A DNA stretch of 64,000 nt from an uncultured Gammaproteobacteria bacterium (GTDB lineage: Bacteria; Patescibacteriota; Microgenomatia; UBA8517), in contig CAZWNZ010000001.1 in NCBI GenBank assembly GCA_964635715.1, positions 408,616 through 472,615 on the forward strand, given 5' to 3'. The translations under genes and the position numbers were made by a program. The notes below the pieces were generated by a model. That model worked only from the letters and a program-made list of their open reading frames with translations, had not been told where the DNA came from and made no database searches. The number at the start of each line of letters is the position of its first letter. The stretch's first letter is position 1. Of the stretch, positions 2 through 7,274 are shown piece by piece.

Positions 2-268
2 TTGGGAAGAAAATGTCCCGACTGTACAGATGGTGAATTGGTTGTTCGTTTGGGTCGGTTTGGTAAGTTCATTTCCTGTTCAAGATTTCCTGATTGCAAA
101 CACACCGAAAAATACTTAGAAAAAGTTGGGGTAAAATGTCCGGACTGTAAGGAGGGCGATGTAATAGTTAAAAAAACAAGTAAAGGCAGAAAATTCTTCG
201 GCTGTTCCCGTTATCCTGAATGTAAGTATGCGAGTTGGCGTTCTCCAAAGAAGGAAGAAAAGATTTAA
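2..268 (+). CDS. topA: DNA topoisomerase I, C-terminal zinc-ribbon repeats (partial; 5' end lies outside the window)
   Basis: Repeated CPDC...C..FPDCK zinc-ribbon modules (CPDCTDGELVVR...GKFISCSRFPDC, CPDCKEGDVIVKK...FFGCSRYPEC) are typical of the TopA C-terminus. The ORF runs open from the window edge. Confidence 0.6.
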   Translation: MGRKCPDCTDGELVVRLGRFGKFISCSRFPDCKHTEKYLEKVGVKCPDCKEGDVIVKKTSKGRKFFGCSRYPECKYASWRSPKKEEKI

Positions 269-807
269 CCCTTTTGATTTTTATACTTAACAACTTCCTG
301 GGAGAGATAATTTAGCTTTACTCCGGCTTTTCTAAACATCGCCTCACTTTCTGCTCCGTCGTGATATTTATTGGCGGCGACCACTCTTTTGATGCCGGAG
401 TTTATAAGAAGCATGGCGCAAGTCCTGCATGGGGTCATATTGACATAGACAGTGGCTCCGTCTAAAGATACGCCTCTTCTGGCGGCTTGACATATAGCAT
501 TCTGCTCGGCATGAACAGTACGAACACAGTGTTCTGTAATTGTTCCGTCCTCGTGAATTACTTTTCTCAACTGATGTCCCACCTCATCACAATGAGGAAG
601 ACCAACCGGTGAACCAACATACCCGGTGACTAAAATCTGTTTATCTTTTACAAACACCGATGATGCACGGCCCCTGTCACAAGTAGCTCTTTTGGCAACA
701 GATTTCATTATCTCCATGAAATACTCGTCCCAACTCGGACGAATGTATTTCTCAACTTTTTTAATCGATTTTTTGGATAATTTTTTCGACTTGTTCATGT
801 AAATCAT
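265..807 (-). CDS. dCMP deaminase (cytidine/deoxycytidylate deaminase family)
   Basis: Zinc-binding deaminase motifs are present: HAEQNAI and PCRTCAMLLINSGIKRVV. The length is ~175 aa. Confidence 0.8.
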   Translation of the reverse strand: MIYMNKSKKLSKKSIKKVEKYIRPSWDEYFMEIMKSVAKRATCDRGRASSVFVKDKQILVTGYVGSPVGLPHCDEVGHQLRKVIHEDGTITEHCVRTVHAEQNAICQAARRGVSLDGATVYVNMTPCRTCAMLLINSGIKRVVAANKYHDGAESEAMFRKAGVKLNYLSQEVVKYKNQKG

Positions 808-1354
808 TTATTGAACCATTGTTATCAAATTTATAATCTGACAGCAATATGCACTTCGGCAAATTTTGTGCATTAGGGTCTAAATTTTGAGATTCTTTCT
901 CCTCTTGGATTTTAAACTCCTCAAAAGTTACGAAATCTTTTTCGGATGCACGCGACTTAGCTCTCTCATATCTCAATTCTATATTTGCGTCTACTGCGAA
1001 TATTACACCGCCGTTTTTCTTAATAAACTCGACTTCTTTGGGGTTTCTAATGCTTTCAATAACGGCATTCTTATTTTCCCTTTTTGCTTCTTTGAATAAA
1101 ATTTTTGTTATGTAATCAGGCCCGTATTCTGTCCTGATTTTATTGGCAATTTCACGCATACCGTTTCTATCAACTTTTATATTTTGTTTTATCAATTCCT
1201 TTGTAAGATAATCGGAGACGGAATAATGCTTAAACCTTTTTTTGGAGACCAAATAATTAACAATAGTTCCCTTACCTGAACCGAATGTTCCTGTGATGCC
1301 AATTATTAGCATTGGATTATTAATATAATATGGTAAGATATTTTGCAATGGCAT
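761..1354 (-). CDS. P-loop (deoxy)nucleoside monophosphate kinase-like protein
   Basis: A Walker A motif is present: IIGITGTFGSGKGT. It overlaps the dCMP deaminase gene by 47 nt and sits in a dNTP-metabolism neighbourhood. The true start is probably the internal Met, MLIIGITG. Confidence 0.5.
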   Translation of the reverse strand: MPLQNILPYYINNPMLIIGITGTFGSGKGTIVNYLVSKKRFKHYSVSDYLTKELIKQNIKVDRNGMREIANKIRTEYGPDYITKILFKEAKRENKNAVIESIRNPKEVEFIKKNGGVIFAVDANIELRYERAKSRASEKDFVTFEEFKIQEEKESQNLDPNAQNLPKCILLSDYKFDNNGSINDLHEQVEKIIQKID

Positions 1355-1686
1355 TTAACGATTTTGATAAATATCAGGATGAGTGCGGTAAGACAGCCGT
1401 GTATCCAAAAGTAGGTGAGAAATTTGTTTATCCACTTCTCGGTCTTCAGGGAGAAACGGGTGAAGTGTCCGAAAAAATTAAAAAAGTATTTCGTGATGAA
1501 GGCGGAAAATTAACAGAAGAAAAGAGAGCAGAAATCAAAAAAGAATTGGGAGATGTATTGTGGTATCTGGCTCAGCTCTCGACGGAGCTTGGAATAAGTT
1601 TCTCCGAAGTCGCAAAAGGAAATTTGGAAAAACTTTCCTCAAGAAAAGTACGCGGCAAGCTTCACGGAAACGGGGACAATCGGTAG
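1330..1686 (+). CDS. MazG-like nucleoside triphosphate pyrophosphohydrolase
   Basis: The MazG motif ELGDVLWYLAQLSTELGISFSEV is present. It is a small all-alpha protein. Confidence 0.7.
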   Translation: MVRYFAMAFNDFDKYQDECGKTAVYPKVGEKFVYPLLGLQGETGEVSEKIKKVFRDEGGKLTEEKRAEIKKELGDVLWYLAQLSTELGISFSEVAKGNLEKLSSRKVRGKLHGNGDNR

Positions 1687-1767: not shown

Positions 1768-3486
1768 ATGTTTGACAAGCTCAATTTACCAAAACGATTT
1801 GCCTTCCCTTATAAGCCGGAAAATTTTTCCAGCAAAGAACGAAAAATTCTTCTAAACTTTTTTACAAATATAGACAAACCGGTTTTTGCAATCTATAACC
1901 TACCGCAAGAAGTTGTTGGAGCAATGTTTTCAAGATACTCAAGATCAGAAAAAAGCGTAAGACGTCTTTTTTTGGATGAGTTTTGGGATGCTTCTTTTAG
2001 TCAATATAAAGTTAGTCAGGACAAACTTAATAAGGCAAGGGAAAGAACAGACTCTTTCTATAAAAAAGTTTTCGCCGAGTTTGGCGACGATTCTGTCATT
2101 CAAATGGGGAGTATACATGTTGCATTTGAATTTGTATCGCAGATTGCAAGCAAAGCAATAGAAGATCAAAGAATCGGGGCGTCTTATATAGAGAAATCAA
2201 CTCGCTATGTTGATTTTGGCGGAAAGGTTGGGGGCCACTATCTTTATGTAGATATTCCGGAGATCTCCAAATCGAAATATTTTGAAGAATATAAATCCTG
2301 GAATAATTTTGCATTTGATGCCTATAACAAACACCTGGAAACTGCAGCGAAATTCTTGGAGAAAAAATATCCAATTGCCGATTTTGCCAACATTTCACAA
2401 TCTACCAAAAAGGAAGAAATCGAAATAATAAATAAAGCTTATAAAAGGGCCCTAAAAGCAAAAGCTTTTGATACTGTACGCATTTTTCTTCCCACGACTG
2501 TTGTTACAAACTTAGGTGGTCATTTTTCCGGACAGTCCGCTGAAAACATGATTAACAAAATGCTTATTTCACAGCACGCCGAAGTCCGGCTATTGGGGAA
2601 AATGGCCTATGAAGAATTAACAAAAGTCTCCCCAAATTTTTTGCAGAATATCGATTCAAAATACGGAGAGATTGCAAGAAATTACAGAAATGAAATCAAA
2701 GATCGTTCAAATAAAAATGCAAACAAATATTTAAAAAAGATTAAAAAAGAAGATGACCAAAAAGATGTTCGGGTAATAGATTTTGACCGCGACATGGATA
2801 TTAAAATTGCTTCTCAAATTCTTTATGCTGCTCAAACAAAAACATACTTGTCAAAAAAACAAGTTCTGGATTGGTGTAAGAGAAATCGGAAAGCACTTAC
2901 TGAAATAATTTTTTCATCAATTCCTGATAGGGGTAAGCCCGAAATAAATCGTCGCCACAAACTTCCAAGAGCATTTGAGCAGTCGGAAGTTGAAGTAGAG
3001 TTTTTTAAAGATTTTGGAATTTATCGGGATTTGCAAAGAAACCGTCTGTCTTCAACTGAGAGGTTGTTTTTAAACTCTGAGTTTTTAGAAATTCCGGAAG
3101 AATTTAAAGAATCGGGAATGGAGGAAGTTTTATCCGACTATATTAAACTTCATAGGATGACCAACGCATTAAACAAAAAATTAACAAAAGATAAAGATGC
3201 CGAAATCAGAAACGCGGCTGAGTATGTGACAATTTTGGGCAATAAACTGAGATTTAATATTAGAGCTAATATCAGGCAAATGGTTTTCTTTTCAGAACTT
3301 CGAACCATCGCCGGTGGGCATCCTTCTTACCGTAATGCAATGCAAAAGGCAGTTAACGAGTTAGTCAAAAAAGTTCCTAATTTGAAACCTTTATTCGCAA
3401 AAGTTGATTGGTGCAAGGATTATGGTTTAGGGAGAATGAAATCTGAGGTTAGAACACAGGAGGCTCTGGTGAAAATTAATAAATAA
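1768..3486 (+). CDS. thyX: Long (572 aa) flavin-dependent thymidylate synthase ThyX-like protein
   Basis: The second half carries RRHK-LPRAFEQ-S, matching the ThyX RHR-X7-S signature. It also has a ThyX-like C-terminal block: FFSELRTIAGGHPSYRNAMQKAV. It is flanked by dCMP deaminase, tmk, glyA and folD. The N-terminal half is divergent. Confidence 0.45.
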   Translation: MFDKLNLPKRFAFPYKPENFSSKERKILLNFFTNIDKPVFAIYNLPQEVVGAMFSRYSRSEKSVRRLFLDEFWDASFSQYKVSQDKLNKARERTDSFYKKVFAEFGDDSVIQMGSIHVAFEFVSQIASKAIEDQRIGASYIEKSTRYVDFGGKVGGHYLYVDIPEISKSKYFEEYKSWNNFAFDAYNKHLETAAKFLEKKYPIADFANISQSTKKEEIEIINKAYKRALKAKAFDTVRIFLPTTVVTNLGGHFSGQSAENMINKMLISQHAEVRLLGKMAYEELTKVSPNFLQNIDSKYGEIARNYRNEIKDRSNKNANKYLKKIKKEDDQKDVRVIDFDRDMDIKIASQILYAAQTKTYLSKKQVLDWCKRNRKALTEIIFSSIPDRGKPEINRRHKLPRAFEQSEVEVEFFKDFGIYRDLQRNRLSSTERLFLNSEFLEIPEEFKESGMEEVLSDYIKLHRMTNALNKKLTKDKDAEIRNAAEYVTILGNKLRFNIRANIRQMVFFSELRTIAGGHPSYRNAMQKAVNELVKKVPNLKPLFAKVDWCKDYGLGRMKSEVRTQEALVKINK

Positions 3487-3487
3487 A

Positions 3488-3727
3488 ATGCCGGAAAGAA
3501 AACCTATTGTTCGAAAAGTTGATCGAGTTGTGGAAATTGAATCATTTCAAAAGATAATTCACGGAATTGACGGAAATTTAACAAAAGCTGATTGTCCGAC
3601 ACACGGAAAGGAAGTGTATTTTGAGAGGGTTGGGGGAGATTTATTTCAATGTGCTAACTCGAGTCATTATAAAAAAAGACCAGGGGCAGTAAATCAGGAA
3701 AACAGTTTTTATAAACAAAATGGATAA
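3488..3727 (+). CDS. Small hypothetical protein with Cys/His cluster
   Basis: A 79-aa ORF fills the thyX-tmk gap and overlaps the tmk start by 8 nt. It contains CPTHGKEVYFERVGGDLFQCANSSH. Confidence 0.3.
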   Translation: MPERKPIVRKVDRVVEIESFQKIIHGIDGNLTKADCPTHGKEVYFERVGGDLFQCANSSHYKKRPGAVNQENSFYKQNG

Positions 3728-4355
3728 AAAGACAAACAAACGAATTAAGCAGGGAAAATTAATTGTGATTGAAGGAGGAGTTGGCTGTGGAAAGACAACT
3801 CAAACGGCCCTTTTAATAAAAGATCTCAAAGGGTGGGAACTCTATCATGAGCCGGGTAGTACTCCGTATGGCGAGAAGGTAAGGGATGCAGTTCAGGGAC
3901 TTCATGGTTATGGTGTTGAAGAACATGCGGCAATGTTTGGGTATGCTGCCTCCCGGGCTAATTTAATCCGCGGTCTAGTAATTCCGAAACTCAATAAAGG
4001 AGTAAACATAATATTGGATAGGTATTGGTACACAACATATGCATATCAAGGATCTAATGGAGTTGCTGATGAAATAATAATATCTGTTAATAAAATAGCC
4101 ACTGCTGGCCTAAAACCTGATTTAATTTTGTTTTATGATTTAAATCCAAAGATTGGTATGCAAAGAAAATCTGGAAGAGAAGACACGGATAGGTATGATG
4201 TCAAGAAATTGGAGTTTCATAAAAAAGTCAGAAGACGTTATCATAAATTGGGAAAAAAGATAGGAAAAAACTGGAAAGTAGTAGATGCCTCAAAAACAAT
4301 AGAAGAAGTGCACAGTGAAACATTAAAGATTTTGAAAAAGAGTAAAATAATTTAA
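3720..4355 (+). CDS. tmk: Thymidylate kinase
   Basis: The P-loop LIVIEGGVGCGKTTQ is present, followed by the DRY motif (ILDRYWYTTYAYQG). Its stop overlaps the glyA start. Confidence 0.85.
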   Translation: MDKKTNKRIKQGKLIVIEGGVGCGKTTQTALLIKDLKGWELYHEPGSTPYGEKVRDAVQGLHGYGVEEHAAMFGYAASRANLIRGLVIPKLNKGVNIILDRYWYTTYAYQGSNGVADEIIISVNKIATAGLKPDLILFYDLNPKIGMQRKSGREDTDRYDVKKLEFHKKVRRRYHKLGKKIGKNWKVVDASKTIEEVHSETLKILKKSKII

Positions 4356-5656
4356 TGACAAAAATTCAGGAACTAGTTAAAAAAGAAGAAACTCGTCAGG
4401 AGGAAACTTTAATGATGATTCCTTCGGAAAATTATACTTCAAAAGAGGTGAGAGAGGCGGTTGGTTCCAAATTGATGAATAAATATTCGGAAGGGTATGC
4501 CGGACGCCGCTATTATCAGGGGAATAAAGTTGTTGATGAAATCGAACTTTTTGCAATTGAAAAGGCAAAAGAATTGTTTGGAGTCGAACATGTAAACGTC
4601 CAGCCGTATAGTGGTTCTCCTGCAAACGCAGAAGTTTTGTTTAGCTTACTTGAGCCGGGTGACAAAATAATGGGTTTAAAACTTTCTTCGGGCGGACATT
4701 TAACTCACGGACATCCGGATATTACTTTCTCCGGAAAATTTTTTAAATCGGTTCAATTCGGGACAAAAGATGATGGAATTATTGATTATGATGAAGTAGA
4801 GAAGTTGGCGGAAAGAGAAAAGCCGAAGCTCATGATTATTGGCACTACAGCATACCCCCAAATTCTTAATTGGGAGCGTTTGGGAAAAATTGCTGATGAA
4901 ATCGGAGCGTACTTGGTGGCAGACATTTCCCATGTTTCAGGACTGATTCTCGCCGGGGTTTATCCTTCTCCGGTACCTTTTGTTCATGTTGTGACTACCA
5001 CAACACACAAGACGTTAAGAGGACCGAGAGGTGCAATGATAATGGTTACTAAAAAGGGAGTAGAAAAAGATTCTGAGCTTCCGGTTAAAATTGATAGAGC
5101 AGTTTTTCCAGGACTTCAAGGCGGACCGCACAACAACACAACGGCAGGAATTGGCCAGGCCTTAATTGAGGCGGATTCACCGGAGTTTGTGGAATATGGA
5201 AAGCAAATTGTGGCAAATGCAAAAACTCTGGCAAAAGAATTAAAAAGCGGTGGTTTAACTTTAGTTGCTGGGGGAACGGAGTGCCACCTAATGGTTATTG
5301 ATTTAAGACCGATGGGTTTATCCGGCAATATTGTTGCTGAGGCCTTGGAAGTAGCCGGAATCGTCGTTAACAGGAATTCAGTTCCCAATGACCCTGCGCC
5401 TCCTTTTTATCCTTCAGGAATCCGGCTTGGAACTCCCGGGGTCACAACCCGCGGAATGGGAGAACCTGAAATGAAGATTATTGCTGATTGTATTCTTAAG
5501 GTTATCGAACACGTCAAAAACGAAAAACTTCCGGAAGATAAAGAAGATAGGCGTGAATTTTTAAAAGCGTTTAGAAAAAAAATAGAGAGAGATGAATTTT
5601 TGAAAAATATCGCCCTAGAAGTGAAATATCTTTGCACCAATTTTCCAACTCCATAA
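4355..5656 (+). CDS. glyA: Serine hydroxymethyltransferase
   Basis: Classic SHMT motifs are present: SGGHLTHGHPD and VVTTTTHKTLRGPRGAMI. Confidence 0.95.
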   Translation: MTKIQELVKKEETRQEETLMMIPSENYTSKEVREAVGSKLMNKYSEGYAGRRYYQGNKVVDEIELFAIEKAKELFGVEHVNVQPYSGSPANAEVLFSLLEPGDKIMGLKLSSGGHLTHGHPDITFSGKFFKSVQFGTKDDGIIDYDEVEKLAEREKPKLMIIGTTAYPQILNWERLGKIADEIGAYLVADISHVSGLILAGVYPSPVPFVHVVTTTTHKTLRGPRGAMIMVTKKGVEKDSELPVKIDRAVFPGLQGGPHNNTTAGIGQALIEADSPEFVEYGKQIVANAKTLAKELKSGGLTLVAGGTECHLMVIDLRPMGLSGNIVAEALEVAGIVVNRNSVPNDPAPPFYPSGIRLGTPGVTTRGMGEPEMKIIADCILKVIEHVKNEKLPEDKEDRREFLKAFRKKIERDEFLKNIALEVKYLCTNFPTP

Positions 5657-5733: not shown

Positions 5734-6417
5734 TTATTTCTGGAGTTCCTGCCATTTCCTACTGACAATAAACTGATTACGGCGATCTTGAGGGGTCAAT
5801 GATTCTATAAAATTGGAAAAACTTTGTGCTTTTTCATACCTTGAGTTGAATTCTTTTTGAATTTGGACGATGCCGTTGGGCAGTGACTCGGAGTTGGTGT
5901 TGTCAATGTCAACGAGAAACTTTCGTGCATCATTAGGATGAGTTGATAGCTTTAATCTGATGACTTTGTAATTTTCAGGAGGGATTCTATCCGCTATCCA
6001 TTCATCACCGTCAAATCCGTTGTTGTATACACCCTGAAGCTCCGGCCTTATCTTAGGTTTTCTAATATCCAGTCCTTTTGTGTCAATTTCCAAAATTACT
6101 CCACAAACGGGAACTTCAACGAGATCTGTTATTACGCCTCTATCGTTAAATTTTTCAGTTTTTATAGATAATCCAGGAATATTAGTTGATGCATATGCAG
6201 TTTCAGACATAATTCTGTTTGTAGACATATATACACCAAGTTCATTTCCATCACCAATTTTAGTTGGATCGTCTTTGTTTACTCTACCTGGCATCAAAGG
6301 TTTATTGAAAAAATCAGGAGACAATTTACGGGGGTCAACACTAAAAGCACGATATAATACTTTGGGCCTTGTTTCAGTTTCCGAAATTTGTTTTCCAGCT
6401 TCAGGATTAACGTCCAT
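5734..6417 (-). CDS. Hypothetical protein (227 aa)
   Basis: A long ORF antisense-oriented between glyA and folD. No recognisable family. Its R...STN...E residue order is noted in findings. Confidence 0.5.
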   Translation of the reverse strand: MDVNPEAGKQISETETRPKVLYRAFSVDPRKLSPDFFNKPLMPGRVNKDDPTKIGDGNELGVYMSTNRIMSETAYASTNIPGLSIKTEKFNDRGVITDLVEVPVCGVILEIDTKGLDIRKPKIRPELQGVYNNGFDGDEWIADRIPPENYKVIRLKLSTHPNDARKFLVDIDNTNSESLPNGIVQIQKEFNSRYEKAQSFSNFIESLTPQDRRNQFIVSRKWQELQK

Positions 6418-6473: not shown

Positions 6474-7274
6474 ATGAAGACAATCATTTTTGACGGCCGA
6501 GCCTTTGCCGAAGAAAAAAAAGAGGAAGTGAAGATTGTGGTCGCGGGTTTGAGATCTCGTGGAGTCGTGCCGCATCTTGCATCAATTTTGATAGGACACG
6601 ATCCGGCAAGCACTCTCTATGTTGGTTTAAAGAAAAGGGCGGCGGAGGGCATTGGAGCAGAACTCGATCCTTATTATCTTCCTGAAAGCACAAAGCTTGC
6701 TGATGTTTTATTGCTGATAGACTCACTTAATTTTGATGAAACTGTTCATGGCATTATGGTCCAACTTCCAATCCCAGGGGAACTAGGAAAACATAAGGAT
6801 GAGATATTAGGCGCCATAGATCCTCAAAAAGATGTTGACGGATTAAAAAATGATAGTAAATATTTACACCCAACCAGTAAGGCGGCTGCCGATATCTTAC
6901 ATTCAGCAGAAAAAGAACTAAAATTGGAAAAGAAGGGGAAGATTGCAATTGTTGGAGCAACAGGTATGGTTGGTGCGCCGCTTGTTAAAGAACTTAAAGT
7001 TGAAGGTTACAATGTTGTGACAGCGGATGGAAAGACATCTGATCTATCGGCAATCATAAAAGACGTCGATATTGTAATAAGTGCTACCGGAGTGCCGGAT
7101 TTGATAAAGCCGGAAATGGTGAAAGAGGGAATTATCGCGATTGACGTTGGCTCTCCAAAAGGAGATTTTGATCCTGAAGTTGAAGAAAAAACGGCATTTT
7201 TTACACCAGTGCCGGGAGGGGTGGGACCTGTTACAATTTCCTGCCTACTTGAAAACCTGATTGATGCCTGTTAG
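6474..7274 (+). CDS. folD: Bifunctional methylenetetrahydrofolate dehydrogenase/cyclohydrolase
   Basis: FolD N-terminal motifs are present (ILIGHDPASTLYVGLKKRA) with a Rossmann-like GATGMVG. The start ATG sits 6 nt after the TGTTAAAAT extended -10. Confidence 0.9.
   Translation: MKTIIFDGRAFAEEKKEEVKIVVAGLRSRGVVPHLASILIGHDPASTLYVGLKKRAAEGIGAELDPYYLPESTKLADVLLLIDSLNFDETVHGIMVQLPIPGELGKHKDEILGAIDPQKDVDGLKNDSKYLHPTSKAAADILHSAEKELKLEKKGKIAIVGATGMVGAPLVKELKVEGYNVVTADGKTSDLSAIIKDVDIVISATGVPDLIKPEMVKEGIIAIDVGSPKGDFDPEVEEKTAFFTPVPGGVGPVTISCLLENLIDAC

Follow-up and report, generated by a model that had tools for sequence, protein, structure and literature searches.

A long, two-domain ThyX with apparently complementary catalytic residues in a Patescibacteria-type dTMP gene cluster

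Results

A thyX gene in a dTMP-synthesis neighborhood

The window analyzed here is a 64-kb stretch of an uncultured bacterium of the Patescibacteriota lineage (contig CAZWNZ010000001.1, positions 408,616 to 472,615), and its subject is an ATG-to-TAA open reading frame (ORF) at 1768–3486 on the forward strand, thyX, which encodes 572 amino acids (aa) plus the stop and has the long, two-domain form of ThyX. An earlier interpretation made from the DNA letters only (the sequence-only reading) had singled out this ORF, and the ORF is real: an identical protein is found in an NCBI record (100% identity) on a 482-kb contig and in an independent Logan assembly of a sequencing run (L081). Taken together, the data presented below indicate that the ORF is probably the organism’s flavin-dependent thymidylate synthase in its long two-domain form, lying within a conserved cluster that supplies deoxyuridine monophosphate (dUMP), recycles folate and phosphorylates the product, thymidine monophosphate (dTMP).

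Upstream of thyX, a dCMP deaminase gene, whose product makes dUMP, lies on the reverse strand (265–807, −; PF00383 89 bits; TIGR02571 ComEB 114 bits, under cut-off) and is overlapped by 47 nucleotides (nt) by the gene of a small AAA_18/UPF0200-like kinase-fold protein (761–1354, −). A small MazG/YpjD-like nucleotide pyrophosphohydrolase follows on the forward strand (1330–1686, +; PF03819 50 bits; PDB 5ie9 and 2gta at E ~2e-3). Downstream are tmk, encoding dTMP kinase (3720–4355, +; PF02223 137 bits; TIGR00041 145 bits against a cut-off of 83), glyA, encoding the serine hydroxymethyltransferase that regenerates methylenetetrahydrofolate (CH2-THF) from the tetrahydrofolate (THF) released by ThyX (4355–5656, +; PF00464 484 bits), and folD (6474–7274, +; PF00763 105 bits; PF02882 103 bits). 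The profile scores bear out the deaminase, MazG, tmk, glyA and folD as originally named; the protein then called dNMP-kinase-like has a small kinase fold of the AAA_18/UPF0200 type.

The protein consists of two ThyX domains

The whole protein scores 78.4 bits against PF02511 (Thy1), and a separate search of each half, a check suggested along with the sequence-only reading, placed both above the gathering cut-off of 24.8 bits: residues 1–330 with 57.8 bits (E 1.6e-15) and residues 331–572 with 26.7 bits. The first 330 residues, previously described as unassignable, are thus the better match, and the ThyX-like block is not confined to the second half as had been stated. The N-terminal domain comprises residues ~39–322 (1882–2733, +), with helical insertions at ~60–105 and ~172–240. 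The C-terminal domain comprises residues ~334–572 (2767–3483, +) and is supported by its PF02511 score, by family-profile matches and by the same order of secondary-structure elements as in the N-half. Positions 382–565 of the family profile, which cover the C-half, match 17 solved ThyX sequences (best E 2.1e-5), and the N-half profile aligns to Mycobacterium tuberculosis (Mtb) ThyX with E 0.001. A phmmer search of PDB sequences with the single protein gave no match; the solved ThyX sequences were reached by family profiles only.

Structure prediction, also proposed earlier, gave a confident AlphaFold2 (AF2) model from 61 relatives (pLDDT 91.8, pTM 0.89), in which the order of strands and helices is identical in the two halves. 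The fold is that of ThyX, as the top 50 Foldseek matches in the PDB are all ThyX. The 572-aa protein is, with hardly any room for doubt, a two-domain member of the ThyX family. Duplication is supported by the match of each half to ThyX, and not by a match of the halves to each other.

The ThyX motif is divided between the halves

The sequence-only reading had pointed to an RHK-X7-S string in the second half. This string does exist (RRHKLPRAFEQS, residues 395–406; 2950–2985, +), but it is a different element from the ThyX motif: the profile alignment pairs it with PBCV-1 ThyX IRHKHWSIFETA, where the viral segment reads ‘IRHKHWSIFE’, and it corresponds to the canonical GHxS..E segment that lies upstream of the motif. 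The register is supported by the AF2 model, in which helix 401–405 and strand 407–415 of the C-half correspond to helix 109–113 and strand 115–124 of the N-half. Conservation was assessed on 141 long-form proteins aligned to the family profile, at the positions equivalent to the catalytic residues of solved ThyX. Ser406, the last residue of the string, is not conserved, most relatives having Ala, Thr or Val there; R395 and E404 occur in all 141 proteins, and R401 occurs in 140.

The positional equivalent of RHR in the C-half is R424-N425-R426 (3037–3045, +), which pairs with R-H-R of PBCV-1. Further downstream, R503 and R512 (3274–3303, +), aligned to PBCV-1 ‘tiR...eLR’, correspond to Mtb R190, which contacts the phosphates of flavin adenine dinucleotide (FAD), and to Mtb R199 (R174 in Thermotoga maritima, Tm), which contacts uracil; these roles are taken from published work (PMC6514825, PMC9571937). 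The N-half has GDDSV at residues 106–110 (2083–2097, +), aligned to Mtb ‘GHFSV’ and equivalent to the canonical G-His-x-Ser-V. A motif remnant, D133-Q-R135 ... S144-T-R146-Y147 (2164–2208, +), aligns to Mtb R95-H-R97...S105-Q-R107-Y108; the remnant has lost the first two residues of RHR, Arg and His, and retains Ser-x-Arg-Tyr. R238 (2479–2481, +) aligns to Mtb R172, a ligand of the dUMP phosphate. Neither half contains a contiguous RHR-X7-S-x-R-Y, which is complete only when the halves are combined.

The same division holds across the 141 proteins. At the RHR positions (Mtb R95-H96-R97), the N-half has Asp or Trp (position 133: D 105, W 23, R 6), a variable residue and Arg135 (141/141), and the C-half has R424 (141/141), His (102) or Asn (38) at 425, and R426 (140/141). 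For Mtb S105-x-R107-Y108, S144, R146 and Y147 of the N-half are each found in 141/141, and the C-half positions are variable. Mtb R172 is matched in the N-half by R238 (140/141) and in the C-half by Gln or Glu (E485 in the window protein). Conversely, Mtb R199 corresponds to Met or Leu in the N-half and to R512 (141/141) in the C-half, and Mtb R190 to Gln (77) or Arg (63) in the N-half and to R503 (141/141) in the C-half. At the position of the stacking His (Mtb H69, Tm H53), the N-half has Asp107 (141/141) and the C-half mostly Pro or Leu (L399 here). Mtb S71 is equivalent to S109 (141/141) in the N-half and to R401 in the C-half, and the Glu of GHxS..E to Gln or Glu (Q112 here) in the N-half and to E404 in the C-half. 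Within GDDS, G106 is likewise present in 141/141 and D108 in 140/141. Wherever a residue is shared by 140 or more of these proteins, the window protein has it too, and its sole notable deviation is N425.

In Mtb ThyX, one canonical site draws on three subunits: subunit A contributes RHR/R95 and R199, subunit B S71 and R190, and subunit C R87, S105, R107 and Y108 (PMC6514825). Uracil is contacted by R199 and R107, the ribose by R95, and the phosphate by R87, R172 and R107 (PMC9571937). The long form keeps the role A residues in the C-domain only and the role C residues in the N-domain only. Thus, neither half looks self-sufficient, and the retention of catalytic residues is complementary.

The long form is a large and widespread class

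A word-indexed search with the window protein returned 5,409 relatives. Almost all of the best 120 are 520–650 aa long, and many of these carry the NCBI/JGI names “FAD-dependent thymidylate synthase” or “thymidylate synthase ThyX”; the closest named relatives among them are from Patescibacteria and Woesebacteria. An exhaustive search of 1.84 billion cluster representatives gave 2,475 matches (1,257 at E ≤ 1e-10 and 346 at E ≤ 1e-30), and the best 150 are mostly 500–620 aa long and align in one stretch across the whole query. A scan of species-representative genomes yielded 594 confirmed loci, 80 of which were kept; all 80 are single ORFs spanning profile positions ~13–587. They come from Chlamydiae, Nitrososphaerales/Thaumarchaeota, DPANN and other archaea, Cyanobacteria (Westiellopsis, Prochloron), Chloroflexota, Dormiibacterota, Actinomycetota, Binatia/Deltaproteobacteria, Rokubacteria, Acidobacteria and Saccharibacteria.

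As a single chain of ~500–650 aa that is colinear over both domains, the window protein is an ordinary member of this long ThyX class, and the enzyme class is already known. The ORF is unusually long, as first described, when set against the solved short chains (~190–270 aa), but 520–650 aa is typical within its own family; nor is it a new fusion, because thousands of bacterial and archaeal proteins share the architecture. PDB sequences contain no long-form ThyX, each matched ThyX chain being 217–270 aa. A literature search that did not cover Liu & Yang 2004, Ulmer 2008, Leduc 2004 and Griffin 2005 found no description of a two-domain ThyX.

Some relatives depart, or seem to depart, from this layout. 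One relative (P0032; 741 aa, 740-kb contig, 61% identity) has ThyX fused to a nucleoside 2-deoxyribosyltransferase domain (PF02511 + PF05014), which is encoded by a separate adjacent gene in L082. The thyX stop-to-stop frames of five Actinomycetota loci (L035, L076, L037, L073 and L036) extend 160–1,140 codons upstream of the ThyX part, probably because G+C-rich DNA happens to lack stop codons there and not through fusion. Another locus (L087, 1–2578; P0125) was considered as a naturally split thyX and rejected: it has a run of N with a frame change and an in-frame stop at the conserved Tyr of ‘SRYSRS’. Since its contig has 3x coverage, an error of assembly or sequencing is the most likely cause of the split.

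The dUMP-supply module varies in a conserved gene order

A gene order recurs in Patescibacteria relatives: mreB-PBP2-dprA-topA-[variable module]-thyX-tmk-glyA-(folC)-folD-rpsB-tsf-frr. In the window and in four relatives (L082–L085), the slot between topA and thyX holds a variable module that always serves dUMP or dTMP supply. The module consists of the dCMP deaminase, the kinase-like protein and MazG in the window (265–1686); of a dCMP deaminase, a kinase-like protein, a HAD hydrolase, a deoxyribosyltransferase and a dUTPase in L084; of a dCTP deaminase and a dUTPase in L083; of a dCTP deaminase in L085; and of a deoxynucleoside kinase and a thymidine kinase in L082. Because the window MazG occupies the slot where relatives have a dUTPase, its position suggests that it may act as a dUTP/dCTP pyrophosphatase.

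The downstream genes are also consistent with a ThyX-type reaction. ThyX oxidizes reduced nicotinamide adenine dinucleotide phosphate (NADPH) and not the folate, so that it yields THF rather than dihydrofolate (PMC9931769), which makes linkage to glyA (THF to CH2-THF) rather than to folA coherent. No thyA, folA or second thyX was found in the window in a search with Escherichia coli queries; the E. coli ThyA query gave a best tblastn E of 0.27 against the window, and the ThyA active-site string P[PAS]CH is absent from all of its frames. The context of tmk, glyA, folD and dCMP deaminase, together with the lack of thyA in the window, predicts dTMP formation dependent on FAD, NADPH and CH2-THF.

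Contrary to the sequence-only reading, the cluster is not strictly contiguous in the window: a 79-aa ORF (3488–3727, +) separates thyX from tmk, and a 227-aa ORF on the opposite strand (5734–6417, −) separates glyA from folD. The former begins 2 nt past the thyX stop, overlaps tmk by 8 nt and, in its CPTH...CANSSH pattern, recalls small zinc-binding proteins; it matched no family, and none of the fetched relatives has a counterpart. In relatives, the gene directly 3′ of thyX is tmk or a deoxyribosyltransferase gene. The 227-aa ORF had no Pfam, NCBIfam or PADLOC match and no counterpart in the fetched relatives, and the glyA–folD slot of other genomes holds folC or an ATP-cone protein or is empty.

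The overlapping deaminase and kinase pair also occurs in L084 (4293–4808 and 4777–5322), where it adjoins thyX. The window pair matches consecutive parts of fused anti-phage dCTP deaminase models, namely positions 151–332 and 432–484 of 630 in PADLOC PDLC02373 and positions 2–207 and 327–390 of 437 in NCBIfam NF041025. All of these matches are partial and far below cut-off, and an anti-phage dCTP deaminase defense system was rejected as an identity for the pair. Given the same overlapping pair beside thyX in L084, it looks like a housekeeping pair, a split relative of the defense enzyme.

Discussion

Proposed assembly of the long form

Family membership and genomic context make it very likely that the protein is the cell’s dTMP synthase, converting dUMP to dTMP. 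How its two domains would share this work is suggested by residue conservation, and we favor, with moderate confidence, a division of labor that yields two sites per dimer. We take as reference a canonical tetramer of four identical subunits with four sites, each site built by three subunits. Of the three, one provides RHR together with the Arg that binds uracil, another provides the Ser-x-Arg-Tyr loop plus the phosphate binders, and the third provides the Ser and Arg holding the FAD phosphates. In a tetramer of this kind, with D2 symmetry, subunits A and C swap roles over their shared interface and so form two sites. If the A/C pair is replaced by a C-domain and an N-domain, one site would be complete and the other would lack nearly everything. 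In the long form, the C-domain would supply R-(H/N)-R, R503 and R512, and the N-domain S144-x-R146-Y147 and R238.

ThyX activity is reported to need tetramer formation (PMC9931769). Two chains of the long form could build a pseudo-tetramer, a homodimer imitating the canonical tetramer, in which each N/C interface would carry one complete and one vestigial site. Because duties are divided between the C-domain and the N-domain, a pseudo-tetramer with two sites is the expected outcome; the prediction is two catalytic centers per dimer, not four, with about one FAD per chain. Role B would most likely be filled by the other C-domain, as R503 and E404 are invariant, although S109 in the N-half leaves an alternative.

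Taken one domain at a time, the protein departs from the classical ThyX definition in three features: its motif is not contiguous, it lacks the stacking His, and it scores 17.3 bits against TIGR02170, the NCBIfam thyX equivalog, where the cut-off is 87.9. Several observations, the TIGR02170 score among them, weigh against the proposed reading. The two halves show no significant similarity by BLASTP (E 25), and local-mode hhalign recovers the expected register at a weak E of 0.043. The His that stacks flavin and folate is missing from both halves (Asp107, Leu399), the position of Mtb R87 is Gln125 in the window protein and Asn or Gln across the family, and the window protein’s clade has RNR in place of RHR. 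It is ambiguous which domain supplies the third-subunit residues, as the S71 equivalent is found only in the N-half (S109), and the R190 equivalent and the canonical Glu only in the C-half (R503, E404). Moreover, a purely dead site would not explain why GDDS and R135 are invariant in the N-half. This conservation leads to a variant of the two-composite-site dimer, which we consider unlikely, in which the vestigial sites would have taken on a new function, such as docking NADPH or binding an allosteric nucleotide; it draws on their retention of the invariant Gly-Asp-Asp-Ser, of Arg135 and often of an Arg equivalent to R190. If true, this would be a division of labor unseen in any solved ThyX.

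Alternative explanations

The sequence-only reading had considered a degenerate first copy fused to an active second copy. In this scenario, the C-terminal copy is a self-sufficient ThyX and the N-terminal copy a scaffold or regulatory appendage. The RHR equivalent R424-N-R426 and the arginines R503 and R512 all lie in the C-half, and the N-half has lost the R199 equivalent and two residues of RHR, its first Arg and its His, as this would require. However, the C-half has no conserved Ser, Arg or Tyr at the positions of Mtb S105, R107 and Y108 and has Glu or Gln at that of R172, residues that the N-half keeps in 140–141 of 141 proteins. In T. maritima ThyX, Ser88 and Tyr91 are critical for activity and Arg90 is the conserved partner of Tyr91 (PMC11940539), and it is the N-half that retains their equivalents in 141/141. 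The N-half is also the stronger Thy1 match, and we regard this scenario as improbable.

About as doubtful is a dimer in which all four sites are catalytic, with family-specific residues replacing the lost canonical ones. Invariants found only in this family (S58, R59, R65, D107, D108, D235, E259, R395, R401, Y486, H518, Y521 and R522) could rebuild such sites, and 63 of the 141 proteins have Arg at the R190 position of the N-half. A site led by the N-half would nonetheless miss the first Arg and the His of RHR, the uracil Arg and the entire Ser-x-Arg-Tyr loop together, and so clean a complementary pattern is what would be expected if one site per pair had been given up.

It is very unlikely that a ThyX fold serves another chemistry here, as in a PolB-type UMP/dUMP methylase or in a hydroxymethylase making a modified base. 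The locus does not lie in a nucleoside-antibiotic biosynthetic cluster, the setting of PolB-type enzymes. It has conserved synteny with tmk, glyA, folD and dUMP-producing enzymes, and the window contains no other thymidylate synthase. Furthermore, the long form is the ThyX of Chlamydiae, a phylum for which ThyX but not ThyA is listed (PMC5954106, PMC4913046), and Chlamydia trachomatis ThyX has been assayed as ThyX (PMC3498832). Finally, the idea that two adjacent thyX genes were joined by an assembly or frameshift error, which could point only to L087 as a relative that looked split, is refuted by the single ORFs of 141/141 sequences from independent assemblies and by the identical protein of the Logan assembly.

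Implications

For annotation, the impact is small: a gene for this thymidylate synthase is what one would expect in a small, Patescibacteria-type genome, and its relatives are already so named in public databases. The sequence-only reading was right in recognizing ThyX, and erred in its motif assignment and in its view of the N-half. The structural by-product is a complementary loss of catalytic residues that is invariant over 141 bacterial and archaeal sequences. From this loss, a half-the-sites enzyme is predicted, a fused pseudo-heterodimer, which is a modest and testable structural point and would provide an example of duplication, fusion and subfunctionalization inside an oligomeric enzyme. 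ThyX is being pursued as an antibacterial target, with Chlamydia among the named pathogens (PMC5954106), and an asymmetric active-site make-up of the chlamydial type would thus be relevant to inhibitor design.

Comparison with known ThyX systems

The canonical short, homotetrameric enzymes (T. maritima TM0449, M. tuberculosis Rv2754c, Helicobacter pylori ThyX and PBCV-1 A674R; PDB 1o26, 2af6, 3ah5, 4fzb) have one 190–270-aa domain in which the extended motif is complete, and their tetramers contain four identical sites. The window protein differs in that its motif is divided over two diverged domains and the stacking His is missing; its domains are ~16–18% identical to solved ThyX and are mutually undetectable by BLASTP.

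Among Cyanobacteria, the Westiellopsis and Prochloron genomes carry a long form like that of the window. Liu & Yang reportedly described in 2004, judging by the title, a cyanobacterial ThyX with “distinctive ThyX motifs”, which suggests that the deviant motifs of the long-form subfamily had been noticed by then. The Trichodesmium ThyX gene contains an intein and a group II intron; the window thyX has neither.

A close likeness is also seen with the long-form ThyX of Chlamydiae (Anoxychlamydiales, Parachlamydiaceae, Waddlia, Simkaniaceae and other Chlamydiales), in which one chain is colinear over both domains, with 31–35% identity over residues ~18–565 and the same invariant residues in both halves. 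Given the phylum-wide pattern, C. trachomatis ThyX (CT632, ~529 aa) probably belongs to the long form, and Griffin et al. reportedly characterized its kinetics in 2005. This enzyme shows dUMP-dependent NADPH oxidation and has been used in inhibitor screens (PMC3498832). The Patescibacteria clade, to which the window protein belongs, is set apart from the chlamydial form by an Asn in place of His in the RHR of the C-half (N425; 38/141) and by a somewhat greater length of 570–620 aa.

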